A DNA stretch of 64,000 nt, taken from positions 21,490 through 85,489 of the forward strand of contig CAZIJO010000003.1 of the NCBI GenBank assembly GCA_964539515.1, given 5' to 3'. Under the pieces are notes generated by a model. The model searched no databases. It worked only from the letters and a program-made list of their open reading frames with translations, and had not been told where the DNA came from. Origin of the DNA: an uncultured Bifidobacterium sp. Its GTDB lineage: Bacteria; Verrucomicrobiota; Verrucomicrobiia; Limisphaerales; JADLHS01. Each line of letters starts with the position of its first letter. Position 1 is the first letter of the stretch. The position numbers and the translations under genes were made by a program. Shown here in pieces: positions 9,181-58,270 of the stretch.

Positions 9181-9849
9181 ATGTCAGCAATTTTTCCGAA
9201 ATGGACCAACCGGTTGCCGTTGATGATCATCCTCGGTGGCGGTTTGTTTGCCACAGCGGTGACCGCGGGGGTTTGGTATTACTTCACCCCGAAATATTTC
9301 CTCGTCGGATATCAACCCATCCAGCCGGTGGCCTTTTCGCACGCCACCCATGCCGGACAATTGGGGATGGATTGCCGCTACTGCCATAGCGCGGTGGAGC
9401 AGTCGTGGTTCTCGAACATCCCGTCGTCCTCCACCTGTATGAACTGCCACAATCAGGTGCTCAAAGATGATGATCGTCTGGCCCTCGTCCGCGAAAGCGC
9501 CGCGACCGGGAAGCCGATCCCGTGGGTGCAGATTCATCGCGTGCCGGACTTCGTTTATTTCAACCACTCCGTCCACGTCAATCGGGGCATCAGCTGCGTT
9601 GAGTGCCACGGGCCGATCGACAAGATGGATGAGGTTTATCACGCGAAACCGTTGAGCATGTCGTTCTGCCTCGAATGCCATCGCAATCCGGCGGCGAAAG
9701 TGCGGCCGGCCGACAAGATTACGGATTTGAACTGGCAGTGGAGCCCCGACCCGGCCGTCAATGCACAGCAGCAGAAGGCGTTCGGCGAAAAATTCGTCAC
9801 GGATAACCGGGTGGAATCGCTTCAGAACTGCTCGGCCTGTCACCGATGA
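9181..9849 (+). CDS. actA: alternative complex III pentaheme cytochrome c subunit ActA
   Basis: Five CxxCH motifs (CRYCH, CMNCH, CVECH, CLECH, CSACH); QPIQPVAFSHATH; N-terminal TM; first gene of the act cluster. Confidence 0.93.
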   Translation: MSAIFPKWTNRLPLMIILGGGLFATAVTAGVWYYFTPKYFLVGYQPIQPVAFSHATHAGQLGMDCRYCHSAVEQSWFSNIPSSSTCMNCHNQVLKDDDRLALVRESAATGKPIPWVQIHRVPDFVYFNHSVHVNRGISCVECHGPIDKMDEVYHAKPLSMSFCLECHRNPAAKVRPADKITDLNWQWSPDPAVNAQQQKAFGEKFVTDNRVESLQNCSACHR

Positions 9850-12800
9850 AAACCATTCCCGTAACGGACACCACCCCTGCGACCGGCCGCCAATACTGGC
9901 GCGGTTTGGATCAACTGGCCGAGACGCCGGAGTTCAAGGAATGGCTGCAGCGGGAGTTTCCCGCCGGGGCGAGCGAGATGACGGACCCGGTTTCCCGCCG
10001 GCACTTTGTCAAAATCATGTCCGCCTCCTTCATGCTGGCGGGGCTGGGGTTGGGGGCCACCGGCTGCCGACGGCCGGAGGACAAGTTGATGCCCTTCGGT
10101 AAGGCGGCAGAGAATTTCGTTTACGGCACGTCTCAGCATTTTGCCACCGCCATGCCGACGCGGGGCGGGGCGGTTCCGCTCCTGGTGAAGTCGTATGAGG
10201 GGCGGCCCGTCAAGGTGGAAGGCAATCCACTGTTCCCCGGCGGTAACGGCAGCACGGACCGGTTTGCGCAGGCTTCGTTGCTGAACTTATACGATCCGGA
10301 TCGCGCCACGCGATTTGCGAAGCAGGGCGGCTCGGGCCGGCTGGAATCCGTGCAACCCGAAGTGGCGCTCGATGCGCTCATTGGCCTGGCGGCGAAATTC
10401 GCAGCAACCCAAGGCGAAGGATTGGCCCTGCTCGCCGAGCGCACCCATTCGCCGTCACGCCGGCGGCTGCATCAGGAAATTTCCAAAAAACTCCCCAAGT
10501 CGCAATGGTACCTGTACGACGCGATCGATGCGGACGTGCATCAACGGGCGGCCACCCGGGCATTTGGCAAACCGGTCAAGCCGGTTTTCCGCTACGATGT
10601 GGCCAGCACCATTCTTGCGCTGGATTGTGATTTCATCGGCGGGGAGGAGGATGCGCACAATAACATTGGCCGTTTTGCCAAGGGGCGAAAGATCGAGAAA
10701 CCCGAAGATTCGATGAGCCGCCTGTACGCGGTGGAATCGCTCTTCACGCTCACCGGCGTCAATGCGGATCATCGGTTGCGCTTGCCGGCAAGCGCTGTTG
10801 CCCAGATTGCGGCGGCCATTGCAGCGGAACTGGGCGTGAAGGTCGTAGGCGGCACCTTGCCGGCGGGAGTTGACGCAAAGTGGATTTCCGAATGTGCCAG
10901 GGATTTGAAGGCAAACGCAGGCAAGTCGCTGGTCGTCGCGGGCTATCGCCAGCCGATGGCGGTGCATCTCCTGGCTCACGCCATCAACGCCGCGTTGGGC
11001 AGCGTGGGCACCACGGTGGAATTGATCGAAGTTCCCGCCCCGATTTCGGAGAGTCTCCCGAAACTCGCCGAGGCACTGAATGGCGGCCGGGTCGAGACCC
11101 TCGTGATTCTCGGGGCCAATCCGGTTTACAATGCGCCGGCGGATTTGAATTGGGCGGCGACGCAGCGCAAGGCGAAGGCGGTGGTGCGCCTGGGATATTA
11201 CGAAGACGAAACCGGCGCGGTTTCCGACTGGCATTTTCCACTTGCCCATTACCTGGAGTCGTGGGGTGACACGGTCACCAGTGATGGCACCTTGGTGCCT
11301 GTTCAGCCGCTGATTGCGCCGTTGTTCGGCGGCTTGACCGACCTCGAGTTTCTCTCCCGCCTCGCCGGGTTGCCCGAAACCAGCCCGAACAAGATCGTCC
11401 GCGAAACGTTCGCCAGCATCACCGGTAACCGCACCGAGGCGGCCTGGAACAAGTTCTTGCACGATGGCTTTGCACCCGGCACGGCGGCAAAGAAGGTCAG
11501 CGCCAACTTTAATGCGTCGGCCCTCGGCGGAATCACCACGCCCGCAGGCGCCGGCAAGGACAATCTCGAGGTGGTGCTCTTTCGCGATGCGAAGGTGGAC
11601 GACGGCCGTTACGCGAACAACGGCTGGTTGCAGGAGTTGCCCGAACCCATCACCAAGATGGTATGGGACAACGCCGTGCTGGTCAGCCGCAAAACCGCGC
11701 GTGAGCTTGGCGTGCAGAATGAGGACGTCGTCGAAATAAAGATCGGCGAGCGTTCGATCAAAGGGGCGATTTGGACGCAGCCGGGCATGGCGGATTATTC
11801 ACTCGGCCTGGCGCTCGGTTATGGGCGCACCCGGGTTGGGCGTGTCGGTGTCGGGACCGGTTTCGACGCTTACCCGTTGTTCTCGACCCGGACGGGTTAC
11901 ATTGCAACCGGGGCCACCGTACGCAAGACCGACGAGACCTATCCGCTGGTTTGCACGCAGAGCCATTGGTCCATGGAAGGTCGCGCCATCGTGCGCGAGG
12001 CGAATCTGGCGCAGTTCAAGTCCCATCCGGATTTCGCGGAGCGGATGAATGCTGAGGAAGCGCCGAACGAAAGCCCGATTTATCCAAATCCGCTGGATGA
12101 GGCCAAGAAGACCGCGCTGCATCAGTGGGGCATGTCGGTGGATTTGAATTCCTGCGTCGGCTGCGGCACGTGCGTGATGGCGTGTCAGAGCGAGAACAAC
12201 ATTCCGATTGTCGGCAAGGATCTGGTGAGTCGTGGGCGCGAAATGCAATGGATCCGGATCGATCGCTATTTTTCAACGGATCCAAGCAAGCGCACGTTTG
12301 GCCAGACCTACCAGAAGGACGAGGCCCAGCAGTTCGACACCTGGATTGATGACGTGCAGGCGGTGAACCAGCCGATGTTCTGCCAGCATTGCGAAGCCGC
12401 GCCCTGCGAAAGTGTCTGCCCCGTCAATGCGACGATCCACGACCACGAAGGTTTGAACGTGATGGCGTACAACCGTTGCGTCGGCACGCGGTACTGTTCC
12501 AACAACTGCCCCTATAAAGTCCGGCGGTTCAATTATCTCGATTACAACAAGCGCCCGTTGAAGGAGCTGAAGGGCCCGTTTTATGCCACCACCCTGCTGC
12601 ATCGAACCGGCGGGGAATGGGACCTGGCGCGCTGGTGGAAGGATCAGAATGCCACCATGCGTCCGGATGACGAGCTGGATTTGATCCGGATGATCAAGAA
12701 CCCGGACGTGACGGTGCGCATGCGCGGCGTCATGGAGAAATGCACCTTCTGCCTCCAGCGGATTGAGGGCGCGAAGATCGCGCAGAAGGTCAAGGCCGGC

Positions 12801-13145
12801 GAGTCGGGCGACGTGGTGGTGCCGGATGGCACGATCAAGACGGCCTGCGAGCAGGCGTGCCCGGCCGAAGCGATTGTGTTCGGCAACGTTGCCGATCCGG
12901 AGAGCCGGGTGTCGAAACTCAAGGCGCAGGAACGGGATTACTCGGTGCTGGACTTCCTGAAAACGAAACCGCGCACCACCTACCTGGCGCGCGTTCGCAA
13001 TCCGAATCCCGCCATGCCGGACTACGAAGAAGCGCCACTGACCTTCAAGGAATTTGCGACCAAGAATGGAGACCCCTTTGCCCATGGTGGCCACGGAAAG
13101 GCCGCCGCGCCCCATGAACACGCTGTCGAGAAAGGAGCGCACTAA
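9846..13145 (+). CDS. actB: alternative complex III subunit ActB (molybdopterin-oxidoreductase-like + Fe-S domain)
   Basis: YWRGLDQL and SRRHFVK Tat-variant leader; [10 protein letters not shown]; ferredoxin motifs [44 protein letters not shown]. Confidence 0.94.
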
Positions 13146-14563
13146 TGTCTGAAGCCACCACTCAGATTCAGGTGCCCGTGACGCCGCCGGAACTGGAGCG
13201 GATTCCGCTGGTGCAGAACAATCGCAGCTTCGGCTGGATTTCCGACCGTGTCTCCGCCATCACCGAAGGCAAAACGCCGGCCTGGTGGTGGGCGGCCTTC
13301 ATTCCCAGCATCAGCTTGCTGGCGCTGCTGGGGGCGATGCTGTTCTATCAGGCCACTACGGGCGTTGGCGTCTGGGGGAATCATCACCCCACGATGTGGG
13401 GCTGGGACATTATCAATTTCGTGTGGTGGATCGGTATCGGCCACGCGGGCACATTGATCTCGGCCATTCTTTTCTTGCTGCGCCAGAAATGGCGGACGGG
13501 CGTGAACCGGGCCGCGGAAGCCATGACCATATTCGCCGTCATGTGCGCCGGAATTTATCCGGCGATGCACGTTGGGCGCGTGTGGTTCGACTGGTGGCTG
13601 TTCCCCATCCCGACCTACCAGGGACTCTGGCCGCAATTCCGTTCGCCCCTGATGTGGGACGTGTTTGCCGTTTCCACCTATTTCACGGTTTCCGTTCTGT
13701 TCTGGTACGTCGGTCTGGTCCCTGACCTGGCGACGATGCGGGATCGTGCCAAAACCAAAATCCGGCAGTTTATTTATGGAGTGATGGCCTTCGGCTGGAC
13801 CGGCTCAAACCGGCACTGGAGCAATTACGAGAAGGCGTATCTGATTCTCGCGGGTCTTTCCACGCCGCTGGTGCTTTCCGTTCACTCGATCGTCTCCCTG
13901 GACTTTGCGGTGTCGCAGCTGCCCGGCTGGCACACGACCATTTTTCCCCCGTACTTCGTGGCGGGCGCGGTATTCTCCGGCTTCGGCATGGTGCTCACGC
14001 TGCTGATTCCGTTGCGGAGCATGTGCCATCTCGAGGATGTGATCACGATGCGGCACATTGACGTGATGTGCAAAGTGACGCTGGCGACCGGTTCAATCGT
14101 CGGTTACGCCTACGGCATGGAGTTCTTTATTGCCTGGTACTCCGGCAGTGCCTTCGAGCGCTTCGCCTTCATCAACCGCGCGATGGGTCCTTATTGGTGG
14201 GGTTACTGGCTGATGGTGGGATGCAACGTGATCGTGCCCCAGCTCTTCTGGTTCACCAAGGTGCGGAAGACCCTTTGGCTGGTGTTCATCCTGTCAATCC
14301 TGGTCAATGTCGGCATGTGGTTCGAGCGCTTCGTGATCGTCGTGATCTCGTTGCATCGTGAGTTTCTGCCGGCCAACTGGGATTATTTCAAGCCAACCTG
14401 GGTGGATATTTGCACCTACCTCGGCACGTTTGGATTGTTTTTCACCATGTTCCTCCTGTTCCTGCGCTTCCTGCCGATGGTGGCCATTTCGGAAGTCAAG
14501 GGCGTGACCCCCCAGGCGGATCCGCACCACCCGCTGGCCAAAGGTAACGGAGGCAAGCACTGA
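13145..14563 (+). CDS. actC: alternative complex III NrfD/PsrC-family membrane subunit ActC
   Basis: [56 protein letters not shown]. Confidence 0.94.
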
Positions 14564-15102
14564 TGAGCGCCAACGCCAAACCCTACGGTCTGCTCGCGGA
14601 GTTTGACAACACGGCGGACGTGTTGCACGCGGCGGAAAAAGTTCGTAACGCCGGCTTCCGCATCTGGGATGTGTACATGCCATTCCCGATTCACGGCATG
14701 GACAAGGCCATGGGCCTGAAGAATTCCAAGGTCGGCTGGTTCTCGTTCATCGGCGGCGCGACCGGGTACACGACCGGCATGCTGATGATCTGGTGGATGA
14801 ACGCGGTGGACTACAAGATCCTGATCGGCGGCAAGCCGATGTTCAGTCCGCATGGCGCGTTTCCGCCCTCGTACGAGCTCACCATTCTCTTCGGCGCGTT
14901 CGGTGCCATTCTGGGCATGTTGTTCCTGAACCGTCTGCCGCGATTGCACCATCCGCTGCTCAAGCACAAACGCTTCGCCCTCGCGTCCCATGACAAGTTC
15001 TACGTGGTGATCGAAACCGCCGATCCGAAGTATTCCGAAACGGAAACCCGCAAGTTGCTCGAGGCTGCCGGCAGCAAGCGCATCGAAATGGTGGAGGATT
15101 AA
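14563..15102 (+). CDS. actD: alternative complex III subunit ActD (DUF3341)
   Basis: YMPFPIHGMDKAMG, GGKPMFS, FPPSYELTILF; position after actC. Confidence 0.92.
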   Translation: MSANAKPYGLLAEFDNTADVLHAAEKVRNAGFRIWDVYMPFPIHGMDKAMGLKNSKVGWFSFIGGATGYTTGMLMIWWMNAVDYKILIGGKPMFSPHGAFPPSYELTILFGAFGAILGMLFLNRLPRLHHPLLKHKRFALASHDKFYVVIETADPKYSETETRKLLEAAGSKRIEMVED

Positions 15103-15746
15103 TGCGCTACTTCTTCTTAATCTTTGCGGTGTTGGTCCTCATCGTGGTCGGCATCGCCGGCCGGCGGGGTGATCTGTCGCGCAATCGGCCGGTCCAGATT
15201 TTCCCGGACATGAAACGGCAGCTCAAGCTGCGCCCGCAAACGCCCAATGGTTTTTTTGCCAGCGGCCTGAGTTCGCACCTGCCGCCGTCGGGCACCATTG
15301 CACAGAGCAAGCCGATGGCCGTCGGGGGGCGGGAGGTTTACCCGTTCGAAGACCTGCCGGTGAACACGGGCCGCGTGCCGGGAACGACCAATTTTGTCGA
15401 GCTGACGCCCGTTCCGGTCACGGGTCGATTGCTGGCCCGGGGGCAGCAGCGGTATGCGATTTATTGCGCACCCTGTCATGGCCAGACCGGCGATGGGAAT
15501 GGGATCACCAAGAAGATCGGGGCGATGGCCGTGGTGGCGAACCTGCATGACAAGCGCATCGTGGAATTGACCGATGGCGAAGTGTTCAACACGGTCAGCT
15601 TCGGCAAGAACAACATGCAAGGTTATGCGCCGCAGATCGGGGTCGAGGATCGCTGGGCGATTATTGCGTATCTCCGCGCTTTGCAATTGAGCCGGCTCGG
15701 TTCGGTGGACGACCTCGCGCCGGAGACCCGCGCGAAACTCAAGTAA
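15102..15746 (+). CDS. actE: alternative complex III monoheme cytochrome c ActE
   Basis: FPDMKRQ.K.RPQ, GQQRYAIYCAPCHG, NMQGYA, DRWAIIAYLRALQ. Confidence 0.9.
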   Translation: MRYFFLIFAVLVLIVVGIAGRRGDLSRNRPVQIFPDMKRQLKLRPQTPNGFFASGLSSHLPPSGTIAQSKPMAVGGREVYPFEDLPVNTGRVPGTTNFVELTPVPVTGRLLARGQQRYAIYCAPCHGQTGDGNGITKKIGAMAVVANLHDKRIVELTDGEVFNTVSFGKNNMQGYAPQIGVEDRWAIIAYLRALQLSRLGSVDDLAPETRAKLK

Positions 15747-15750
15747 GCGT

Positions 15751-17064
15751 ATGAGTCAACAAGACGATTTCTCCAACACCGATCCGACGCTGCCCCCGCC
15801 GCTTGACTTGTCCAAATGGCGCAAGTTGCCGGGCCAGTTGATTGCGGTTGGGGGCCTGGTCACGCTGGTCGGGCTGGTGGTCAGCTGGCGGCACGATGGC
15901 CTGGTCAATTTTGGTTTCTCCTGGCTCGTGGCGTTCATGTTTTTCCTGAGCCTGGGGCTCGGTTCGTTGTTCCTCGTGCTGGCGCATCACCTGTTTGACG
16001 CGGGTTGGTCGGTGGCCACCCGCCGCATGTGCGAGCACATGTCATCCCTGCTCTTTCCGTGGCTGGCGATTTTGTTCATCCCCATTGCGTTGTTGGCCTC
16101 TCGAATCTACGCCTGGATGGGGCCGGTGTTGCAGGACCATCCCGATCACGCCCTAAAGGCCAAATCGCCCCTCTTTACGACCGCCGGATTTTACCTCGTC
16201 GCGGTGGCGTGCTTTGCCGTGTGGTGGCTGTTGACGAACCGGTTGAAATACTGGTCGCTCAAGCAGGACGAAACCGGATCGGCGGAATGCACCCGCAAGA
16301 TGCGCCTGCATTCGTATTGGGGCATCTGGCTCTTCGCGTTCACGGTCACCTTCGGCGCGATCATGTGGATGAAGGCGTTGCAACATCAGTGGTTCTCCAC
16401 CATGTATGGCGTCCAATACTTCGCCGGCAGTGTCTGGCTCACCTTGGCGACGATTTATGTTCTCACGATGCTGCTGGATCGGCAACGCGTGCTCACCGAC
16501 GTGTTGCACGAGCATCAGTTTTATTTTCTCGGCACGCTGATGTTTGCGTTCACGGTGTTCTACGCCTACGTGTCGTTCTCCCAATACTTCATCATCTGGA
16601 ACGCCAACATGCCGGAGGAAACCTTCTGGTACGTCGTCCGCGAGAAGGGGACCTGGTTTTATGTCGGCCTCGTCATCATCTTCGGGCATTTCTTCATGCC
16701 CTTCCTGGCGCTGTTGCGCATCGATGTGAAGAGTAATTTTGCGCTCATGATTCCGATCGCGGCCTGGGCCTGGCTCATGCATTTCGTGGACATGACCTTC
16801 AACATCCTGCCGCCCCAGTTCAAGGATGGCTTTCCGTTCCAATGGATCTGGCTGCCGCTCGGCATCATGGCCCTCATGGGCGGTCTGCTGGCGCAGGAGT
16901 TTATCCGGAAATTTGCCAGTGCCTCGCCTTATCCCAAGAAGGACCCGCGGCTCATCGAGGCGATGGGGCTTTATCATCCGGTGGCCACCCAGATCTCCGG
17001 TGGTGAACTCGATCAGGCCGACACGCGGCACGGCGCCCCCATTCAACCCAAAGGAAGTCACTGA
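15751..17064 (+). CDS. actF: alternative complex III membrane subunit ActF
   Basis: About 10 TM helices; WFSTMYG, YVSFSQYFIIWNANMPEETFWY. Confidence 0.9.
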   Translation: MSQQDDFSNTDPTLPPPLDLSKWRKLPGQLIAVGGLVTLVGLVVSWRHDGLVNFGFSWLVAFMFFLSLGLGSLFLVLAHHLFDAGWSVATRRMCEHMSSLLFPWLAILFIPIALLASRIYAWMGPVLQDHPDHALKAKSPLFTTAGFYLVAVACFAVWWLLTNRLKYWSLKQDETGSAECTRKMRLHSYWGIWLFAFTVTFGAIMWMKALQHQWFSTMYGVQYFAGSVWLTLATIYVLTMLLDRQRVLTDVLHEHQFYFLGTLMFAFTVFYAYVSFSQYFIIWNANMPEETFWYVVREKGTWFYVGLVIIFGHFFMPFLALLRIDVKSNFALMIPIAAWAWLMHFVDMTFNILPPQFKDGFPFQWIWLPLGIMALMGGLLAQEFIRKFASASPYPKKDPRLIEAMGLYHPVATQISGGELDQADTRHGAPIQPKGSH

Positions 17065-17447
17065 TGAATGCAGATGTGTCGGAGAGCAATGCTTGCGGCC
17101 GCAATTTCTCCGTGACCGCGGCGGTCGTCATTGTCTGCCTCATCTTTGCCGGGCTCGTCTGGAAGATGCGGGAATACACCACCCCGCCGCCGCTGAACGC
17201 GGTGCGCGCCGCCGAACGGGCCAAGGCCCTGGCCGATTTGCGCGCCGAGGAGGCCACCGCCTTGAACAACGTCGGTTGGGTGGACCAGGCGAAAGGGGTC
17301 GTTCGCCTGCCCATTGCCGACGCGGTGAAGCTCGCGGAAAAGCAATGGCAGAATCCCGCGCAAGCCCGCGCCAATTTGATTGCCCGGGTCGAAAAGGCCA
17401 CGGCCCTCCCGCCCAAAGCGCCGGAGAAACCGAGCCAGTTCGAGTAA
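17064..17447 (+). CDS. ActG-like small membrane-anchored protein
   Basis: One TM helix, then GWVDQAKGVVRLPIADAVKL, resembling the ActG motif; translationally coupled to actF. Confidence 0.6.
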   Translation: MNADVSESNACGRNFSVTAAVVIVCLIFAGLVWKMREYTTPPPLNAVRAAERAKALADLRAEEATALNNVGWVDQAKGVVRLPIADAVKLAEKQWQNPAQARANLIARVEKATALPPKAPEKPSQFE

Positions 17448-17468
17448 TTCCCCGTCTGCCCAGACTGA

Positions 17469-18893
17469 ATGACCGCGACTTCGTCCACCCCGCCGCCGCT
17501 GATTGACAATTCCTGTCGTCTGCCCCTCCTCACGCTTTTTGGAGGTGCGGCCATCTGGCTCGCGCTGAGTTCGGTCTTTGGCGTCATCGCCTCGCTGACG
17601 TTCCACAAGCCCTCGATGTTCGCGGACTGCGCGATGTTCAGCTACGGGCGGGCGCTTCCCGCCTGGTCTTTTCTGCTCGTCTATGGCTTCTGCATCCCGG
17701 CCGGCCTCGGGGTTGGTCTCTGGTTGCTGGCGCGGCTTGGTCGCGTCGCGCTGGCCCGGCCCTGGCTGATCGTCGTGGGGGCTAAACTCTGGTCGCTTGG
17801 CGTCATCGTCGGCTTGATCGCGATTCTCTCCGGTCAAGCCACCGGGTTCGAGTGGCTCGAAATGCCGCGATACGCGGCGGTGATCTTGTTCCTTGCGTTT
17901 CTGCTGATCACGGTGTGGGCCTATGTCACCTACACCCAGCGCACGGAGCGGGCGCTTTATCCCTCGCAATGGTTCGTGCTGGCGGCGTTGCTCTGGTTTC
18001 CCTGGATTTTCTCAACAGCCAGTCTGCTGTTGCAATTTTTCCCTGTGCGGGGGGTCGTGCAGGCTTCGGTCGCGTGGTGGTTTGCCGGCAACCTGCTGAA
18101 TGTGTGGCTGACCCTCGCCGGGCTGGCGTCCACGTTTTATGTGCTGCCCAAGCTCACCGGACGCCCGTTGCAAAGTCATTACCTCGCGTTGTTCGCCTTC
18201 TGGACGCTGATTCTTTTCGGCACTTGGACGGGCATTCCGGCGCACGCCGCGCTCCCGGCTTGGATGCCGACCTTGAGCGGGGCGGCGAGCGTGATGCTGC
18301 TGATTCCGGTGCTCGCGGTCGCCACCAGCGTGATCCTGACTGTGCGCGGCGCCAAGACTCCGTGCGGTGGCGGCCCGCTGTGCTTTACCAAATTCGCCGC
18401 CATGTGCCTGGTGCTGGCGACGCTGCTGCTCGCAGTGGCTGCCTGTCCCCAAGTCAGCCGGGTCACCGATTTTACCTGGTTTAACCACGGGCAGAACACC
18501 CTGCGGATCTACGGTTTCTTTGGCATGACGATGTTCGGCGCCATCTATCACATCCTGCCGCAGCTCGTCGGGCTGGAGCGGGTTTGTCCGCGGTGGATGC
18601 GGATCAATTTCTGGCTGGTGATGCCGGGCACTCTCCTTCTCGCCCTGCCGCTGGTGTTTGGTGGCATCGCGCAAGGCTTGAAGCTCGTCGAGGCGACGAT
18701 TCCGTTTGTGGAGGTGGCCAAGTCCACTTTGATGGCTTTTCGCATCAGTACGCTGGGCGAGACGATGATCGCCCTCGGTAACTTGATTTTCTTGTTCAAT
18801 ATCCTGTCGGCGATGGTGGGCTACTATCGTTCGGTCGGCCGGAAGTGCTATGCCGAGGTCACTGCGCTTGAACCCGCGGGGGTGAAGCCATGA
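17469..18893 (+). CDS. cbb3-type oxidase subunit I (CcoN) homolog lacking metal-ligand histidines
   Basis: About 12 TM helices, co-linear with CcoN (YGRALP, WWFAGN, LPKLTGRPL, ALPAW, GAIYHILP, GIAQG), but His ligand positions read W, G, (no HH), Q, T. Confidence 0.85.
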   Translation: MTATSSTPPPLIDNSCRLPLLTLFGGAAIWLALSSVFGVIASLTFHKPSMFADCAMFSYGRALPAWSFLLVYGFCIPAGLGVGLWLLARLGRVALARPWLIVVGAKLWSLGVIVGLIAILSGQATGFEWLEMPRYAAVILFLAFLLITVWAYVTYTQRTERALYPSQWFVLAALLWFPWIFSTASLLLQFFPVRGVVQASVAWWFAGNLLNVWLTLAGLASTFYVLPKLTGRPLQSHYLALFAFWTLILFGTWTGIPAHAALPAWMPTLSGAASVMLLIPVLAVATSVILTVRGAKTPCGGGPLCFTKFAAMCLVLATLLLAVAACPQVSRVTDFTWFNHGQNTLRIYGFFGMTMFGAIYHILPQLVGLERVCPRWMRINFWLVMPGTLLLALPLVFGGIAQGLKLVEATIPFVEVAKSTLMAFRISTLGETMIALGNLIFLFNILSAMVGYYRSVGRKCYAEVTALEPAGVKP

Positions 18894-19762
18894 AATCCAG
18901 CGTGCTGGTCTTCTTGGCGGCGTTCATTGCGCTTTCGGCGTCCTGGGGCGGATTCGTGCTCGCGCCGCAATTGCAATTGGGCCGCTCAGGGCAGGCCAAG
19001 ACCGTTCCTGGTCAGGCCAATTATCCAATCGCGCGTCCGGGGCTCGCCGCGCAAGGGGCGGAAGTCTATCGCTCCCTGGGTTGTGTTCACTGTCACAGCC
19101 AGTCGGTTCGCCAGGACGGCGTAAAATGTGAGATCATTTTGACCGACGCGGGAACCAATACGGCGGCCACCGCGGCCGCGCTCGCCAAGCTAAACGCCAA
19201 GCTTGGTCAGGCGGATCTCCTCTCCGCGTTGCCGAAAACATTGATGTCGGTCGCCGATATGAACGCCGCGGACCCGATCCTTAAAGCGATCGGTTCGGCC
19301 GGGGCCAAGGCGCAAGTGGTGGTGAGTGCACTGGGACCGGATATGGCGCGCGGCTGGGGCCGCCGGCGTTCCGTCGCCCAGGATTACCTCTATGATTTGC
19401 CCGTGCAACCCGGCTCCCGGCGGGCCGGACCGGACCTTGCGAATGTGGGCCTGCGCCAACCGGATGTGAACTGGCAATTGCGCCATCTCTACGCTCCGGC
19501 CGCCGATGTTCCCGGTTCCACGATGCCGCCCTACCGCTTTTTGTTCGAACTGCGCAAGGTCGGGAAGCAGTCCTCCGCCAGGGCGCTGCAACTTTCCGGC
19601 GACTTCGCGCCGCCGGCCGGCTATGAAATCGTGCCGACCGACGACGCATTGGCTCTGGCCGCCTATCTGGTGAGTTTGCGCGCCGAGGCGCCTTTGTTTG
19701 AATCGCCGTTTACCGCGCCCGCCGCGCCGCCGGTTGCAGCCACCAATTCCCCAGCGAAATGA
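18890..19762 (+). CDS. ccoO: cbb3-type oxidase subunit II (CcoO)-like cytochrome c
   Basis: GAEVYRSLGCVHCHSQSVR, GSRRAGPDLANVG, HLYAP, GSTMPPY. Confidence 0.85.
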   Translation: MKSSVLVFLAAFIALSASWGGFVLAPQLQLGRSGQAKTVPGQANYPIARPGLAAQGAEVYRSLGCVHCHSQSVRQDGVKCEIILTDAGTNTAATAAALAKLNAKLGQADLLSALPKTLMSVADMNAADPILKAIGSAGAKAQVVVSALGPDMARGWGRRRSVAQDYLYDLPVQPGSRRAGPDLANVGLRQPDVNWQLRHLYAPAADVPGSTMPPYRFLFELRKVGKQSSARALQLSGDFAPPAGYEIVPTDDALALAAYLVSLRAEAPLFESPFTAPAAPPVAATNSPAK

Positions 19763-20367
19763 GCGCCGAAGCGAAACAACCGAGCCGCGCTTTGCCGGAA
19801 GCCGAACCGACTTCCGCGGCGACGACCGTGCCAATGTGGTTGATTGCGGCGATGCTGGTGTTGCTGTTTCTCGGCGCGTGGTATTTCGATGCGCGCGGCG
19901 GATGGTTCGAGGCGAAGGTTTATGCGCCGTACCATTCGGTGGCGGATGTCGGACGGTTTCAGCCACGTTCCGGTGGCGAAGCGGTTTTGTTGCGCGGCAA
20001 ATTGTTGTTCGAGCAAAACTGCGCGCTGTGCCATAACCCCGATGGCATGGGCAAGCCGGCGCAGGCACCGCCCTTGGCCGGTTCGGAATGGGTTTTAACC
20101 ACGGGTGTCAATCGTCTGATTCGTATTCCCCAAGTTGGCTTGAACGGGCCGATCGAAGTCAAAGGTCAACCCTGGAACCTGCCCATGGCCGCCATGGGCG
20201 CGATGTATCCGGACGAGGACCTCGCGGCCGTGCTCAGCTACATTCGCAATGCCTGGGGCAACAAGGCTTCCGTGGTTACCGCCGAGCAGGTCAAGAAAGT
20301 GCGCGCGGAATTGGCCGGTCGGAGCCAGCCGTACTCCCCGGACGAGTTGAAGAAAGAGGCGGAGTAA
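19759..20367 (+). CDS. membrane-anchored monoheme cytochrome c
   Basis: TM helix, CALCH, APPLAGSEWV, PMAAM, AAVLSYIRNAWGN. Confidence 0.9.
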   Translation: MSAEAKQPSRALPEAEPTSAATTVPMWLIAAMLVLLFLGAWYFDARGGWFEAKVYAPYHSVADVGRFQPRSGGEAVLLRGKLLFEQNCALCHNPDGMGKPAQAPPLAGSEWVLTTGVNRLIRIPQVGLNGPIEVKGQPWNLPMAAMGAMYPDEDLAAVLSYIRNAWGNKASVVTAEQVKKVRAELAGRSQPYSPDELKKEAE

Positions 20368-20387
20368 GCTGCCGGGGCGTGGGAAGC

Positions 20388-21419
20388 CTATCGCGAGCGC
20401 GCCGTGATGCGCTCAATCGCCCACTGGGCGTGTTCACGAACCAGAGGTTCGGGATCCTGTCGGGCCTTTTCCAAAGTCGCGAGGCTGTTCTCATCCCCCG
20501 TATTTCCCAAGGCCACACAAACATTGCGCAGCAGACCCCGACGTTTCGTTCGCAGTACCGGAGTGCCCGCAAATTTGGTCTTGAACCCAGTTTCGTCGAG
20601 CTTTAGCAATTCAATCAGATCCGGCGTGGCAAGCTCGGGACGGGCGTGTGGTTTCATCAAACTCCCTTCGCGGGCAAAGCGATTCCACGGGCAGACGGCG
20701 AGGCAGTCGTCGCACCCGTAGATGCGATTACCGATGAGCGGCCGCAGTTCCAACGGGATCGCGCCCTTGAGTTCGATGGTGAGGTAGGAGATGCAACGGC
20801 GGGCGTCGAGTTGGAACGGAGCGGTGATGGCTTGCGTCGGGCAGGCCGCGATGCAGCGCGTGCAGGTGCCGCAATGGTTTTTCTCGGGCGAGTCGGGTGG
20901 CAATTCCAGGGTCGTCAAAATTTCAGCCAGAAAAATCCAGTTGCCGAGCTTGCGGCTGATGAGATTGGTATGTTTGCCGACGAAACCCAGGCCGGCGCGT
21001 TGGGCGAAGTCGCGTTCCAAAATCGGCCCGGTGTCCACATACCAAAGCGAGCGGGTGCTTTCCCCGCCGAGTTCCTTCACGGCGGCGGCCAGGGATTTCA
21101 AACGCTCGGCCAGTACATCGTGGTAGTCGGTGAAGCGGGCATAGCGGGCCACCTCGCCGGAGGGCGGAGGGCGGAAGGCGGAGGGCGGAGGATCCGTCGC
21201 ATAGCTGATGGCCAGCATGATCACGCTTTGCGCACCCGGGAGGACCAATTGCGGATTCATCCGCTTGGCTGCGTTGCGTTCGAGCCAGCCCATTTCGCCG
21301 TGGCGTCCGTCGGCCAGCCATTGTCGCAGCTGAGGCGCACTTTGCGGCGGCGCGGCGGTGGTGAAGCGGCAGTCGTCGAAGCCGAGTTCCAAGGCCCGCT
21401 GGCGGATTGCCACTTTCAT
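20388..21419 (-). CDS. queG: epoxyqueuosine reductase
   Basis: YARFTDYH, VDTGPILER, CGTCTRCIAACPT, DARRCISYLTIE, YGCDDCLAVCPWN; start MKVAIR (21419). Confidence 0.95.
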   Translation of the reverse strand: MKVAIRQRALELGFDDCRFTTAAPPQSAPQLRQWLADGRHGEMGWLERNAAKRMNPQLVLPGAQSVIMLAISYATDPPPSAFRPPPSGEVARYARFTDYHDVLAERLKSLAAAVKELGGESTRSLWYVDTGPILERDFAQRAGLGFVGKHTNLISRKLGNWIFLAEILTTLELPPDSPEKNHCGTCTRCIAACPTQAITAPFQLDARRCISYLTIELKGAIPLELRPLIGNRIYGCDDCLAVCPWNRFAREGSLMKPHARPELATPDLIELLKLDETGFKTKFAGTPVLRTKRRGLLRNVCVALGNTGDENSLATLEKARQDPEPLVREHAQWAIERITARSR

Positions 21420-21441
21420 CCTAAATCCGGCAGTTGAAATC

Positions 21442-21588
21442 GCCACAAAGAGGCACAAGAAGCACAAAACACAGGACCACGATGGAAATACTACCGGTGA
21501 CATCCCTCAACGGCCAGGTGGACGATTCCGACGTCGGACAAAGTATGTCGAACCTAATTTCTTTGCGCCTTTTGTGCCTTTTTGTGGC
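21442..21588. repeat. inverted repeat pair with 9-nt periodic GCCACAAAG/AGGCACAAG units
   Basis: gccacaaagaggcacaagaagcacaaa (from 21442) versus tttgcgccttttgtgcctttttgtggc (ending 21588). Confidence 0.8.
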
Positions 21589-33269: not shown

Positions 33270-35768
33270 ATGGAGCCATCTTCAAGATTCAATCGAATGC
33301 CGGGTCTGCAAACCGGAGTTCTGATTATGACCGCCCTGCTCATCGCCGCCCGCTTCAGCGGAACAATGGCGCTGGCGCAGTCCACCAATGCGCCGATCGT
33401 TCCCAGCTATCAGGTCGCGCGCTATGAACTCGATAGTCCGGTGCTCACTCCGGCGGACGTGGAACGGTTGACGGCCGACGCAACCGGTGATGCCGTGACC
33501 GTGGCGGAAATCCGGCGCGCCCTGAACCGATTGCAAACCGCCTTGCGCGAGCGCGGCTATCGACAGGCGGCATTGACGTTGCCACAGCAAGCGCTCACCA
33601 ATGGCGTGGTGCGCGTGCGGGTGTGGGAAGGTCCGGCGCCGGGCCAGGCCGCGCCGGCGGCGACCCCGCCGGTGGAACTGCCGGCGTTGGCTGCGCCGGC
33701 CTACGACATCCGCCACTTTGAAATTCACGGCAACACCAAGCTTTCGCCGGAGGCGATCGACCGCATTCTCGGTCCGGCGGCCGGGCCGTCGGCCAATCTT
33801 GATGCGTTGCGCGAAGCGCTGGTGAAACTGCGTGACGCTTACCGCGAGCGCCGCCTGCCGCTGGCCACGGTCACCGTTCCGGAACAATTGCTGACCGATG
33901 GCACGATTGTCATCCAGGTGAACGAGGGTTGGGATCCCGAGGCGGAAGCGCTCGCCAAAGCACAAACCGTGACGCCAACCAATGTTCCAGCCACTCCCCC
34001 CGAGCGCACGTTTGAGGTGCGTCGTTATGAAGTGCTGGGCAACACGTTGCTCGCCCCGGCTGCAATTGATGCCATCGTCACCAATGGCGTTGGCACGAAC
34101 GTCACGTTCACGCAGGTGCGGAAGGTTCTCGGGGATCTGCAACTCGCCTATCGCGAGCGCGGTTTTGCCAGCGCCAGCGTAGCGCTGCCGCCCCAGCAAC
34201 TCACCAACGCCACCATCAAAATCCAAGTCACCGAAGGCGTGCTCGTGGATGCGCGCGTGACCGGCAATCGCTATTTCAGTTCCAACAACGTCATGCGCGC
34301 TTTGCCGTCGGTGGCCAACGCGCTCATCTGGAAGGACGAGGTAATCAACAGTCGCGTGTTGCAGCGTGAACTGGACCTCGCGAATCAGAACCGGGACCGG
34401 CAGATTTATCCGGTCCTCAATCCCGGCCCCGACCCGGGCACGACCGCCTTGGATTTGCGGGTGAAGGACCGCTTGCCCTTGCACGGGCGATTGGAGCTCA
34501 ACAATCAATCGACCCCCGGCACGCCGGACTGGCGGCTCAACGCCTCTGCTAATTACAACAACCTCTGGCAACGGGAGCACGCTGTTGGCATTTTCTATGG
34601 ATTCACCCCCGAGGAGTTCAAAGTCCCGCAGCCAGACCCGGATTACTTTTTCAACCGGCCGCTCGTGGCGAACTTCGGCGCTTATTACCGCATTCCGTTT
34701 GGCGAGCCGCAATCGGTGCAGGAGATCATCAGCGGCAACCGCAACTTTGGCTTTGACGAGGCGACCAAGCAGTTCCGCCTGCCGCCACCGGGCAGCCGGC
34801 CGGACCTGACATTCTCCGTCAGTGGTTCTTCCAGCGACACTGGTGTCAATTACGGCCCGACCACCGTGGTTTCCCAGACGCCGTTGCTGACGATTCTCTC
34901 CCGGGACAGCGGCCAGGATTTGAACTTAAATCAAAGCGCTGGCTACAACCTCAATCTGCCGCGCGCTTTGAGTGACACCCGCCGCCTCAACTTCTCCCTC
35001 GGCATGGACTGGAAGCGCAGCGAGAAGGAGAGTTACAACACGAACAACTTTCTGATCATTACCGTCATCACCAATTCCCAAGGGTCGCAGATTATTACCA
35101 GCGAGGTGTCGTCGCCACAGCCCCCGCGCAAGACCGAGGTCAACTATCTGCCGCTTAACTTCGGGTTCAGTTTCGCGGATGCAAGTCCGAAAGCCACCTT
35201 GTTTGCCAGCGTGGTCTTGAGCGCCAATTTTCTGGGCAACGACTCTGATTTTGTTGCCGCCTCGTACACCCCTGAAGCGCAGGCGGAATATGCGAAGGCC
35301 GTCTTTGCGCTGAGCTACGATCGCAAAGTGTTCAACGACTGGTCGCTGTTGTGGCGACTCAATGGGCAGGCGGCGACGGGACCGTTGATCAACAACGAAC
35401 AATTTGCCGTCGGCGGCATCAACAGCGTGCGGGGCTATTATGAGGGCGATGAGTACGGAGACGTCGGTTGGTTTACCAGTGCGGAGCTGCGCACGCCATA
35501 CCTTGCCACTGAAGCCGGAGTGGTGGATGGCTTCACGCCGGTTTGGTTGCGGGGTTCGATATTTCTCGACGCCGGCCAGCCGATCTATCTCGACGATGTT
35601 CCTTGGGTCGCGCCGGACCGCTTTCTCTGGAGCACGGGTTTTGGCCTCTCAGCAAACATCAACAACCACTTTGACGCGAAAGTTGCAGTCGGTTGGCCGC
35701 TGGCCGACTCCGCCAACACCCAGGCTTATCAACCGCGCGTGCTCTTCTCATTGGGAGGACAGTTTTGA
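33270..35768 (+). CDS. ShlB/FhaC/HecB-family two-partner-secretion outer-membrane transporter (TpsB)
   Basis: Repeated POTRA motifs (YRERG...LPxQ.LT.G...I.V.EG), PGPDPGTT, conserved VRGY loop; ends LGGQF. Confidence 0.92.
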   Translation: MEPSSRFNRMPGLQTGVLIMTALLIAARFSGTMALAQSTNAPIVPSYQVARYELDSPVLTPADVERLTADATGDAVTVAEIRRALNRLQTALRERGYRQAALTLPQQALTNGVVRVRVWEGPAPGQAAPAATPPVELPALAAPAYDIRHFEIHGNTKLSPEAIDRILGPAAGPSANLDALREALVKLRDAYRERRLPLATVTVPEQLLTDGTIVIQVNEGWDPEAEALAKAQTVTPTNVPATPPERTFEVRRYEVLGNTLLAPAAIDAIVTNGVGTNVTFTQVRKVLGDLQLAYRERGFASASVALPPQQLTNATIKIQVTEGVLVDARVTGNRYFSSNNVMRALPSVANALIWKDEVINSRVLQRELDLANQNRDRQIYPVLNPGPDPGTTALDLRVKDRLPLHGRLELNNQSTPGTPDWRLNASANYNNLWQREHAVGIFYGFTPEEFKVPQPDPDYFFNRPLVANFGAYYRIPFGEPQSVQEIISGNRNFGFDEATKQFRLPPPGSRPDLTFSVSGSSSDTGVNYGPTTVVSQTPLLTILSRDSGQDLNLNQSAGYNLNLPRALSDTRRLNFSLGMDWKRSEKESYNTNNFLIITVITNSQGSQIITSEVSSPQPPRKTEVNYLPLNFGFSFADASPKATLFASVVLSANFLGNDSDFVAASYTPEAQAEYAKAVFALSYDRKVFNDWSLLWRLNGQAATGPLINNEQFAVGGINSVRGYYEGDEYGDVGWFTSAELRTPYLATEAGVVDGFTPVWLRGSIFLDAGQPIYLDDVPWVAPDRFLWSTGFGLSANINNHFDAKVAVGWPLADSANTQAYQPRVLFSLGGQF

Positions 35769-38700
35769 ATGAAGACTATTGAGCCAAAAAATTTGAAGGA
35801 CGCTCGCCCTCACCCCGTCCCTCTCCCTCGGGGAGAGGGAGGGCCAATCAGCGTCAACGAAAGCTCCGGTCGTCTTGGTTGCATCCGCCGCCAAATAATT
35901 CGTCAAGGTGGGTCTCATCAGCAAACTGGTGATGTTTCAAATGGCAAGACGCGGCGAGAATTTCTCCCTCTCCTGGGGGAGAGGGCCGGGGTAAGGGCGG
36001 GTGTTGTCACAAATCTCATACGAGTCTTCTCGGTTACGGTGGCGTTCCTGATCACCACAAACGTGTTGGCCAACCCGAATGGTCTCAGCGTTCAGAGCGG
36101 CAATGCCAGCGTCACTGTCAACGGCAACCAATACCACATCACGGCGTCGCACAATGCCATCCTCAACTGGCAGTCCTTCAACATCGCTGCGGGCGAAACC
36201 ACCCGTTTCATTCAACCCTCGGCATCCTCCGTTGTTTGGAATCGCATCCACGACGCCAGTCCATCGCAAATTTACGGCAATCTTGCCGCCAACGGGGTAG
36301 TGGTGTTGATGAACCAGAACGGCTTTTACTTCGGGCCGAATTCGTTCGTGAGCGCGGCGGGGCTGATTGTTTCCACCGCGCCGTTTGTGCCGGCGGAAAG
36401 TGGCGGCGGATTGTTCTGGCAATTCACCGGTCCAGCACCTGGGGCAAGCATCATCAACTACGGTCAGTTTAGCGTGGGGCAGGGCGGCTCAGCGTTTCTG
36501 ATTGCCGAAACCATCGAGAATCACGGTAGTATCACCGCGCCCGGCGGCAGCATCGGCCTGATCGCCGGACAGGAAATCTTGCTGAGTGAACGGCCCGATG
36601 GGCGCGGCTTGAGCGCTTCGGTCACGCTGCCCACGGGGGCGGTCAACAACTCCGGCGATCTGATTGCGGATGCCGGCACGATTGCCCTGAACGCGCGTGT
36701 GGTGAACCAGCATGGATTGGTGCAGGCCAACTCGATTCGCGAGCGCAACGGCATCATCGAATTGATTGCCTCGGATTCGCTCACCCTCGGGCAAGACTCC
36801 ATTGTTTCTGCCAGTGGAGATTCGGTTGGTGTGAGCGCCGGCGGCGCGATTGTCATCAAGTCCGCCGGCACATTCGCGGACGAGACTGGTTCTCAGATTG
36901 AAGTCCGGGGTGGGTCGCTGGGCGGTGACGGAGGCTTCGCGGAAGTCTCCGCGCCGCTCATGGATTCCATCGAGTCGCAAATTGATGGCCGTGCGGCTGT
37001 CGGTTATCGCGGCGGACGATTGCTGATTGATCCGCAGGACATCGTGATCGGTTTCAGCGGTGGCACCCTTGGTTCGGGCACGGTAGGAGCGAATGATCCG
37101 CCCGTCCCCGGCACGCTCAACCTCGACGTGAACTCGTCGTTCCTGGGCTTCTCTCAAATTATACTGCAAGCCACGCGCAACATCACCCTGGCATCGGGGG
37201 TCACCTGGGATCTCGTCGCCAGTACCGGCCTCAGCGAACCCGGCAGCCTCTTGAAACTTGAGGCCGGCAACAACATCACGCTTTCCAGCGGCGCGAGCAT
37301 TCTCGCCGGTGAGAACTGGTCGGTGACTTTGCAGGCCGGGCGTGACTTTTCACTGGCGGACTCAGTGATTGCCGGCACCGGCAACATTCTGTTCTCGGGG
37401 ACAGGTTCGTTGCAGGCGCAAAATGGAAACATCAGTTTGCTGGCGGGCAACAACCTCAGCGTGGGCAGCGGCCACGTGCGGACAATTGGCGGCGGCCGCA
37501 TCAGTGCCCATGCGGTGGGCGGCAGCATCAACACCGGCACGAAGGCGAACGGTTTTATCTTTGTGCCCACCGGTTCGGGCTACAACGTGAGCGCCGACCT
37601 CGGCGGCATCAGCACGGCCAGCGGTGGCGATGTGTCGCTGACGGCCGGATTGGATGTGTTGAGCTATCTTCCGATCGCGGGCGGGGTGCAAACTGACGCC
37701 GGCAGCGGCGCTTTCGGTGCGGCCCCTGGCAACGTGACCATTACTGCCGGTCGGGATGTTGGCGGGCATTTTGTCGTGCGCAATGGTGTGGGCAGTATCA
37801 CTGCCGGCCGCAACGCCGGCCTCGCCACGCGTCTGCTTGCGCTGAGTCTGGTGAGCGGTGGCTGGACGGTCAACGCCGCCAACGACATTCTGCTGCAGGA
37901 GGTGCGCAATCCGAACGGGGTGTTCAACAATCTCGGATCGAGCACCTCGCCCAATCGGCATCGCTTCGACTACGCCGCCAATGCCTACACGATCTTGAAC
38001 GGCGGTCACTCCGTGCAATTGCGCGGGACGGCGCTGCCGCGTTATCTCGACGTCTTTTCGCAAGGCATTCCGGCGATTTATCCCGGGCTGCTTGAAATCA
38101 CCGCCGGTGCGGGCGGTGTGGTCCTTGGCAACGATGTCATTCTGTTTCCCGCGCCCAACGGCAACCTCAGCATCGCCACCACGGACGGCGGTTCGCTCTT
38201 TGGCACGCGCGCCGGCGATCTCACCCAGCTGGTCTTTTCCGACAGTGGCAAGACGCAGTATCGGGCATTCGGTGATTTCGGGATCGCGGATCGCTCGGGC
38301 AACCTGCTGCACCTGAACGACCCGGTGCCGGTCACACTGGACATTGCGGGCGACATGGACGGCATTCTGCTGGGCGTGCCCAAACGCGCGGAGATCAGCA
38401 TTGGCGGCAACATGGTCAACAGCCGGTTCGACGGGCAGAATCTTCGCGCCACGGATGAAACCCGCATCACGGTTGCGGGCAACATCATCAATCGAAACGA
38501 ATTCACGACGGTCGCCAGTCCGCAGCCGAATTTCCGGTTGTTCGATCCGCTGCTTGATTTGATTTATCCGCCGCTGACCGGTGGCGCTGCCGGTGTTCAA
38601 AACCAGTTCATCTACAATCCGACGACTGGTGAGCTGACGTTCCAGGGCCGCATGACGGGCGAACAGTTGCAGGCGTTGCTGAATCTGACCGTGCGGGCCT

Positions 38701-40056: not shown

Positions 40057-40869
40057 ATGCTAACCGAAACCCTCCTCACTCCCATGTTCGCCTCGGGCGC
40101 GCTCCAGTTCGCGTTCGAAAAAGCCACGCTCGAAGGCAAGCTCACCATCGGCGCGCTCGTCATCGTGTCGCTGTTCAGTTGGTCGGTCATTATTACCAAA
40201 ATCCTCCAACTCTGGCGCGCGAGCCGGGTGTCGAAAAGGTTCTTTGACGCCTATCACGAGACGCGCGACCCGCTGGAGTTGCAGCGCAAGGGGCTGAAGT
40301 TCGATGGCGCGCCGGCTTACGAATTGTACGAGGCCGGGCAAAAGGAACTTCAGTTCCAAATCACGAAACATCCCGTGGTCGTGAAGGGCGAGGCCAGGAT
40401 TACCCAGGCCAGTTTTGATTCGGTGCGGGTCTCACTGGAAGAAGCCGCGATGCACGAGGCGCTCGCGCTGGAGAAGGGGATGATTGTGCTGTCCACGGCC
40501 GTGGCGGGCGGGCCGTTCATTGGTTTGCTCGGCACTGTCTGGGGCGTCATGGAGACTTTCTCCGGCATCGCGAAGGCAAATTCCGCCAGCCTCACTGCTA
40601 TGGCACCCGGTGTCGCGGGCGCGTTGATTGCCACGGTCATTGGCCTGCTGGTCGCGATTCCCGCGATGTTCGCCTACAACTTCATGGTGACGCGGATTCG
40701 CGCGTTCACACAGGAACTGGACGCGTTTGCCATCCGGTTCGCCACGCAGATCGAACACACCTACGTGGACGCGCGGCCCATCGGCGAGGAGGTTTCCGAA
40801 GCCATCACCCGCGCCATTCGCAAGGAGGGCTATGATGCCAACACCGTCATTCAGGCGGCGCATATATGA
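40057..40869 (+). CDS. exbB: MotA/TolQ/ExbB proton channel protein
   Basis: AGGPFIGLLGTVWGVMETF, APGVAGALIATVIGLLVAIPA. Confidence 0.93.
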   Translation: MLTETLLTPMFASGALQFAFEKATLEGKLTIGALVIVSLFSWSVIITKILQLWRASRVSKRFFDAYHETRDPLELQRKGLKFDGAPAYELYEAGQKELQFQITKHPVVVKGEARITQASFDSVRVSLEEAAMHEALALEKGMIVLSTAVAGGPFIGLLGTVWGVMETFSGIAKANSASLTAMAPGVAGALIATVIGLLVAIPAMFAYNFMVTRIRAFTQELDAFAIRFATQIEHTYVDARPIGEEVSEAITRAIRKEGYDANTVIQAAHI

Positions 40870-41279: not shown

Positions 41280-41283
41280 GCAA

Positions 41284-58269: not shown

Positions 58270-58270
58270 G

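Follow-up and report, generated by a model that had tools for sequence, protein, structure and literature searches.

At the end of its operon for alternative complex III (ACIII), a 64-kb stretch of DNA from an uncultured verrucomicrobium (contig CAZIJO010000003.1, positions 21,490 to 85,489; below, the window) carries three genes that resemble those of a cbb3-type oxygen reductase: a homologue of the catalytic subunit CcoN, a CcoO-like protein and a membrane-anchored cytochrome c. Judged by its residues, the CcoN-like protein is no longer able to reduce O2 or NO and performs no redox chemistry, and we rate it as a pseudo-enzyme offshoot of the cbb3 family that has become fixed in the ACIII operon. 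The best explanation for the trio appears to be that it is what remains of a C-family (cbb3-type) oxygen reductase which was co-operonic with ACIII in a verrucomicrobial ancestor. The picture that we favour as a whole, with a probability of about 0.55, is a fossil ACIII-cbb3 unit in which the dead CcoN is kept as a scaffold for two c-type haems at the electron exit of ACIII.

Cofactor-ligand positions in the CcoN homologue

The CcoN-like gene (17469-18893) encodes 474 residues in an unbroken frame. In profile searches of the window proteins against Pfam and NCBIfam, its product matches PF00115 COX1 with 132.3 bits (cut-off 34.8) over profile positions 6-435 of 436, as expected of a member of the haem-copper superfamily; against the NCBIfam ccoN equivalog TIGR00780 it reaches 115.1 bits, far from the 583.15 that mark a cbb3 subunit. 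The fold appears to be intact, since an AlphaFold2 model (predicted local distance difference test, pLDDT, 85; predicted template-modelling score, pTM, 0.87) superposes on Pseudomonas stutzeri CcoN (3mk7_A) in Foldseek with template-modelling scores of 0.84-0.86 and a root-mean-square deviation of 2.3 Å over 452 columns, with the 12 transmembrane helices in place.

Ligand columns were located by motif and read from HMMER pairwise alignments to 8smr_E, 9g6b_A and 3mk7_A and from two MAFFT L-INS-i alignments; the CcoN ligands are given in P. stutzeri numbering, taken from the HMMER alignment. All alignments place W66 at the haem b ligand H60 and G207 at the CuB ligand H207. The cross-linked Y251 has become G251, so the active-site tyrosine of the C-family is missing; Q342 stands at H345, which removes the ligand of the high-spin haem b3, and T344 at H347, which together with W66 leaves nothing of the histidine pair of the low-spin haem b. 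The H257/H258 pair corresponds to P257/A258 according to MAFFT or to A258/H259 according to HMMER, and with either pairing the three-histidine CuB/FeB site is incomplete. The motif in the window is GTWTGIPAH, with H259 directly after GTWTGIPA, and because of the HMMER pairing H259 may sit at the H258 position. This histidine is not conserved: it is present in 81 of 120 close homologues, and the column is mainly Gly in 126 distant family members. The original prediction that all six histidines are lost thus stands for H60, H207, H257, H345 and H347, as does the replacement of Tyr251, and has to be softened for H258, to which the non-conserved H259 may align. An alignment artefact was considered and is ruled out, as HMMER and both MAFFT alignments agree on everything except the placement of H257/H258 and the predicted fold is CcoN-like.

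The losses extend beyond the metal sites. S240 and H243, residues of the cbb3 proton-uptake path in the P. stutzeri structure, are replaced in the family: 105 of 126 sequences have Ala at the S240 position, and Gly or Ala stands at that of H243. Homology and fold make the CcoN-like protein a haem-copper superfamily member of C-family descent, and it fails on every functional hallmark of a cbb3 oxidase or a nitric oxide reductase (NOR).

The window protein is not a solitary oddity. Its family comprises 336 clusters at 50% identity with E ≤ 1e-30, with more than 1000 clusters at 90% identity among the candidates scored, and the ligand-less family alone makes up more than 120 clusters at 50% identity. 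The six ligand columns contain no histidine in 77 of 130 full-length top representatives and a single one in 39; two histidines occur in nine, three and four in one sequence each, and three sequences keep all six together with the tyrosine. The Y251 column holds Gly or Ala in 108 of the 130; the H60 and H347 columns are mainly Ala/Phe/Gln and Gln/Leu, respectively, and the H345 column is Leu/Gln/Arg/Val. Overall there is free variation at these columns, with Ala, Gln, Asn, Gly, Leu, His and others all present. A search of the family alignment for columns in which His, Cys, Met, Lys or Tyr reaches 60% found no conserved Cys or Met column and only two His-rich ones, position 46 at the periplasmic end of the first transmembrane helix (TM1) and position 380, where the window has Asn. 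The two lie on opposite membrane faces and so have no possibility of forming a joint haem site, and alternative axial ligands were rejected on this ground. Taken together, the freely varying ligand columns, the missing Cys/Met columns and the mere two His-rich ones make a cofactor site with unconventional ligands very unlikely.

The best-conserved residues are Gly, Pro, Trp and Arg rather than metal ligands. Mean conservation is 0.49 in the periplasmic loops versus 0.29 in the cytoplasmic ones, and the transmembrane segments are conserved like the periplasmic loops (0.46-0.53). In solved cbb3 structures the periplasmic face of CcoN is occupied by CcoO. The conserved periplasmic-loop residues include E128/E131, aligned with CcoN E122/E125. 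Two further conserved features of the ligand-less family are without counterpart in CcoN: a family-specific cytoplasmic motif at the N-terminus, I12-D13-x-S15-x-R17-x-P19 (window 17502-17525), and H46 (window 17604-17606), the His-rich position at the end of TM1.

The gene is under strong purifying selection and is not decaying, as had been anticipated from its full-length frame. Ratios of nonsynonymous to synonymous substitution rates (dN/dS; Nei-Gojobori method, window and its five closest genome loci) are 0.109 for the CcoN-like gene and 0.035-0.106 for ActA to ActF of the ACIII operon, with neighbouring values in ActB (0.098), ActF (0.091) and ActE (0.106) and a lower one in ActC (0.035); the CcoO-like and cytochrome c genes follow at 0.155 and 0.121. 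Where a contig covers the whole CcoN-like gene, the frame is full length in nearly every locus, and the family is large and old. We checked both outcomes that the original prediction had named as contradicting it: no alignment recovers six histidines, and dN/dS lies far from 1. Metatranscriptome contigs match parts of the CcoN-like gene at 97-99% identity, with sparse depth and possible DNA carry-over, which is weak evidence of its expression. Sequence near-identical to window positions 13000-20500 is present in metagenomes from bioreactors, sand filters, drinking water, wetlands and sludge, which makes the source organism a common verrucomicrobium of freshwater or engineered systems.

The ACIII operon, its cytochromes and its intact relatives

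Ten plus-strand genes, closely spaced or overlapping, occupy positions 9181-20367, with the ACIII genes first and the oxidase-like trio last:

9181..9849, plus strand: ActA, pentahaem cytochrome c of ACIII; five CxxCH motifs, matches to Pfam Cytochrome_C7 and a QrcA-like NCBIfam profile
9846..13145, plus strand: ActB, Fe-S / molybdopterin-like subunit with a twin-arginine translocation (TAT) signal; Fer4 domains, QrcB/QrcC-like matches, TAT-variant domain
13145..14563, plus strand: ActC, NrfD-type quinol-binding membrane subunit; Pfam NrfD, E = 1e-21; lowest dN/dS of the operon (0.035)
14563..15102, plus strand: ActD; Pfam ActD, 217 bits
15102..15746, plus strand: ActE, monohaem cytochrome c; single CxxCH at residue 122, Pfam Cytochrome_CBB3
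15751..17064, plus strand: membrane subunit at the ActF position, 437 residues; no Pfam match, named from its place in the operon, which it keeps in all loci reaching that far upstream
17064..17447, plus strand: small protein of 127 residues at an ActG-like position, with a predicted N-terminal hydrophobic helix; no Pfam or NCBIfam match
17469..18893, plus strand: CcoN homologue without cofactor ligands, 474 residues, 12 transmembrane helices; COX1 (132 bits), ligand alignments, AlphaFold2 model
18890..19762, plus strand: CcoO-like monohaem cytochrome c, 290 residues, N-terminal transmembrane helix; Pfam FixO (E = 5e-22), two-block alignment to solved CcoO chains
19759..20367, plus strand: membrane-anchored monohaem cytochrome c at the CcoP position, 202 residues; Pfam Cytochrom_C / Cytochrome_CBB3
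20388-21503, minus strand: queG, following the cytochrome c gene on the opposite strand

The ACIII set of multihaem ActA, Fe-S protein ActB, NrfD-type ActC, ActD, monohaem ActE and ActF is thus encoded together, ActF being assigned by position. The CcoO-like and cytochrome c genes each overlap the end of the preceding gene by four nucleotides. The small protein has a homologue in the same slot in nearly all loci that cover this part of the operon; none was detected in loci L048 and L049, and in L052 and L054 the slot is taken by proteins of 98-153 residues, of which the one compared, that in L052, weakly matches those of two loci. AT skew is strongly negative (-0.13 to -0.21) over window positions 14000-20000, the membrane-protein part of the operon; we attribute this to coding composition, with T-rich codons for hydrophobic residues, and not to a separate feature.

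Both partner cytochromes have kept what the CcoN-like protein has lost, in agreement with the original reading of their motifs. Retained are C65, C68, H69 and M212 (the last within SxMPxY) in the CcoO-like protein and C88, C91, H92 and M143 in the cytochrome c; in both cases conservation across loci is at least 90%. On this sequence evidence both are competent to bind haem c. Placed directly downstream of subunit I and matching PF02433 FixO, the CcoO-like gene is what one expects of a monohaem CcoO partner, with 70 bits against the ccoO equivalog (cut-off 200). The cytochrome c is not a dihaem CcoP, as its 202 residues contain one CxxCH, and the intact ACIII-linked relatives are likewise monohaem. 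The CcoO-like protein also carries an insertion of about 80 residues (residues 76-159, window 19115-19366) between CxxCH and the conserved block YDxPxQxGSxRxGPDL. The insertion has conserved residues of its own (G88-T89-N90, P115, G149 and D151) and matches no family; it occurs in loci with proteins of about 290 residues and is missing from several distant loci and from the intact relatives (203-210 residues).

The order of these genes is remarkably stable. The order seen in the window (ActABCDEF, small protein, CcoN-like, CcoO-like, cytochrome c) recurs, up to the contig ends, in all 51 loci taken from species-representative genomes, at CcoN-like identities from 88% down to 35%. One distant ligand-less representative, on an environmental contig, is also linked to ACIII. 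It is this gene order across the 51 loci that suggests physical membership of the three products in ACIII. Most of the informatively named records are Verrucomicrobiota (Limisphaerales, Pedosphaera, Verrucomicrobiaceae). Eight third-party records of metagenome-assembled genomes (L001, L010, L011, L012, L015, L017, L034 and L040) are titled 'uncultured Bifidobacterium sp.' or 'Bifidobacteriaceae' despite their verrucomicrobial operon, and one (L039) 'Candidatus Methylomirabilota'; these titles look wrong for the content of the loci.

We found no functional subunit I that could stand in for the CcoN-like protein locally. Between the ACIII genes and queG there is no other COX1-family gene, as the original prediction had stated, and no second oxidase was found among the larger open reading frames of the window, those scanned against Pfam. 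No second CcoN-like homologue lies within 10 kb in the 51 loci, by a search that would probably miss a distant A-family coxA. The assembly genes ccoS and ccoI were sought by tblastn with the FixS/CcoS and P-type ATPase of L052, and neither the window nor the 10-kb surroundings in the 51 loci gave a match.

The relatives that have kept their ligands tell us where the family comes from. In a rough neighbour-joining (distance) tree without support values, rooted on P. stutzeri CcoN, three intact representatives (pattern HHYHHHH) and an intermediate with four histidines branch basally, with all ligand-less sequences in a single derived radiation; the closest intact relatives are ACIII-linked cbb3 proteins. 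One of the intact proteins, P0190, is encoded in the same ACIII operon layout within a complete 6.6-Mb genome, with FixS/CcoS immediately preceding subunit I and, right after the cytochrome, a P-type ATPase in the CcoI position. Another, P0263, belongs to a stand-alone ccoNO-cytochrome c cluster. The intermediate P0194 (L054, 5791-7251; pattern HHAQYHH) keeps H60, H207, H345 and H347 and has lost Y251, H257 and H258; it is ACIII-linked and lacks FixS. The Verrucomicrobiaceae loci L048-L050 retain only H60 and H207. Proteins of the P0194 and L048-L050 types could be haem-binding, copper-free forms. In the simplest history, the ACIII-cbb3 operon would have come first, CuB and then the haems would have been lost in one lineage, and this lineage would have radiated.

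Possible roles of the CcoN homologue

The catalytic subunit has lost the ligand pair of haem b, the ligand of haem b3, the cross-linked tyrosine and two or more of its three CuB histidines; the proton-uptake residues are gone as well, and so are ccoS and ccoI, the assembly genes once linked to it. In the reading that we favour, the 12-helix protein would now serve as a membrane scaffold that places the CcoO-like and CcoP-like monohaem cytochromes beside the haem chain of ActA and ActE. Electrons might pass from menaquinol through ActC/ActB to the five haems of ActA, on to ActE and the two extra c-type haems, and finally to an acceptor encoded elsewhere, for which an aa3/caa3 oxidase, a soluble cytochrome or a nitrogen-oxide reductase are candidates; the periplasmic electron exit of ACIII would thereby be extended. 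We infer the association with ACIII, the scaffold role and this electron path from the evidence above. A scaffold is favoured because redox chemistry is impossible for this protein, the proton path is replaced and the periplasmic loops, which face CcoO, are its best-conserved loops. The fixed operon order, the four-base gene overlaps, the conserved periplasmic loops and the existence of intact ACIII-linked cbb3 relatives are consistent with it, though they do not prove it.

Several points weigh against this reading. Binding of the three proteins to ACIII or to one another is a prediction from the genes. CcoO and CcoP have transmembrane anchors of their own, so a 474-residue scaffold seems costly if anchoring is its sole job, and the extra c-type haems may be unneeded as an exit from ACIII. 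The former ligand columns are variable instead of being occupied by plain hydrophobic fillers, and they give little hint of what fills the former haem pockets.

The main rival is that the CcoN-like protein is a load-bearing structural part of an ACIII supercomplex, acting in assembly or stability, and that the c-type haems are not necessary for electron exit. Such retention has precedents: CydB of cytochrome bd is a haem-less relative of CydA, and the core proteins of bc1 are inactive and peptidase-like, both being former catalytic or cofactor folds kept as structural subunits. A purely structural CcoN would resemble the dead peptidase-like core proteins of mitochondrial bc1, with the difference from these and from CydB that it comes from another protein family. 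Strict co-linearity with ACIII at every level of divergence speaks for this alternative, as does a strength of selection near that of the Act subunits. It is harder to reconcile with the haem-c ligands of both partner cytochromes, kept in at least 90% of loci, as such conservation argues that redox function is selected and not bulk alone. We therefore regard this explanation as unlikely, if still the strongest competitor of the scaffold.

We give a smaller chance to the idea that the emptied 12-helix bundle has gained a membrane function, be it binding of a quinone or lipid where the haems used to sit, a conduit for ions or protons coupled to ACIII, or sensing and regulation. Transmembrane segments as conserved as the periplasmic loops would fit such a role, and so would the I12-D13-x-S15-x-R17-x-P19 motif and H46, both peculiar to the family. 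On the other hand, no conserved chain of polar or charged residues is seen within the membrane, and the proton-path residues are now Ala or Gly. Neither a regulatory domain nor a signalling partner was found among the operon genes in Pfam and NCBIfam, and the sensor that the original prediction had offered as one of its alternatives gained no specific support. A bolder form of the idea, in which the vacated haem and copper cavities have been repurposed for menaquinone, a specific lipid or a gated path, so that verrucomicrobial ACIII gains a second functional site within the membrane and the protein, far from being a passive scaffold, is a neo-functionalised component of an ACIII supercomplex of a new type, must be called speculative and is slightly less probable still.

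That the protein is still a redox enzyme, acting on O2, NO or another substrate through unconventional haem or metal ligands, is highly improbable. The superfamily does tolerate ligand changes, as gNOR has Asp for one His and the low-spin haems of nNOR and eNOR have His/Met or His/Lys ligands (PMC11214002), and some family members have one or two histidines at the ligand columns. Yet all six ligand columns vary freely, the two His-rich columns 46 and 380 lie at opposite membrane faces, no Cys or Met column is conserved, and ccoS and ccoI were not found in the neighbourhood. A decaying pseudogene or an assembly artefact, which the loss of every catalytic residue might suggest, is refuted by the intact frame, the full-length frames in other loci, a dN/dS of 0.11, hundreds of divergent clusters and near-identical copies in many independent metagenomes, and has practically no probability left.

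Comparison with known systems and other features of the window

The trio is most easily compared with the cbb3 oxidase CcoNOP of P. stutzeri (3MK7/5DJQ). Shared are the gene order of subunit I, monohaem CcoO and membrane-anchored cytochrome c, the 12-helix fold (template-modelling score 0.85), the CcoO haem motif with its SxMPxY methionine ligand, and structural residues of CcoN (W204, Y224, P227, E128/E131 for E122/E125, and Gly/Pro positions). Unlike CcoN, the window protein lacks the ligands of haems b and b3, a conserved CuB set and the cross-linked tyrosine, and its proton-path residues are replaced. The third subunit has one haem where CcoP has two, the CcoO-like protein has its insertion of about 80 residues, and ccoS/ccoI were not found nearby. 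The intact ACIII-cbb3 operon of L052 (CP074694.1) is closer, as it has ActA-F, the small protein, subunit I, FixO and a monohaem cytochrome c in common with the window; it differs in keeping HHYHHHH and in having FixS/CcoS and a P-type ATPase flank the oxidase genes, neither of which holds for the window.

Links between ACIII and oxidases are not new as such. According to PMC8498564, which cites Refojo et al. 2010, verrucomicrobial methanotrophs and Opitutaceae have cbb3 genes adjoining those of ACIII, and in Flavobacterium johnsoniae and Rhodothermus marinus ACIII is physically coupled to an adjacently encoded aa3/caa3 oxidase, with c-type haems bridging the two (PMC8552683, PMC5928083). The oxidase of those supercomplexes is active and of the A-family, whereas that of the window is of the C-family and catalytically dead, and its association with ACIII is predicted. 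Among other atypical members (Murali et al. 2024, PMC11214002), the gNOR, NOD and putative 'N2O red' families have no active-site tyrosine and are not O2 reductases. They keep their haems and at least most metal ligands; in the window the ligands are replaced save for the possible, non-conserved histidine at H258.

The latest broad survey of the superfamily treats the active-site histidines as conserved in every family save for one single-histidine replacement, that of gNOR, the first member with one active-site His replaced (PMC11214002). A full-text literature search of incomplete coverage returned no description of a ligand-less CcoN or subunit I, nor of a 'cbb3-like' ACIII subunit or accessory module. 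The lineage described here would be the first of haem-copper subunits I known to persist with a dismantled haem and copper ligand set. It also comes with an extant evolutionary series, from intact ACIII-linked cbb3 over the P0194 type, in which haem ligands are kept and CuB ligands mostly lost, to proteins with no ligands, and through this series an ACIII-cbb3 supercomplex in these bacteria becomes a directly testable idea.

There is a practical side to this. These proteins bear the database name 'cbb3-type cytochrome c oxidase subunit I', and for the CcoN-like family such annotation is misleading. Papers on Verrucomicrobiota genomes count cbb3 oxidase as evidence of high-affinity aerobic respiration, and those on Limisphaera and on a metagenome-assembled genome of Pedosphaeraceae list cbb3 among the oxygen reductases (PMC13608581, PMC7914226). 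Inference of high-affinity respiration from ccoN as a marker may be wrong in this lineage, which is widespread in soil, freshwater and wastewater, and the risk of over-calling is real.

Three other gene groups of the window deserve mention. Positions 33270-40025 hold a two-partner secretion (TPS) pair, an 832-residue ShlB/FhaC-type transporter with POTRA domains followed by a 1418-residue protein with an N-terminal TPS domain. Directly downstream (40057-41967) lie a gene for an ExbB-like protein (MotA_ExbB) and, two small genes later, one for a protein with a TonB C-terminal domain. On the minus strand at 56830-60232, a 653-residue PSCyt1/PSD2-5/PSCyt3 protein with a haem-c motif region adjoins a DUF1552 (HXXSHH) protein, a gene pair typical of Planctomycetes and Verrucomicrobia.

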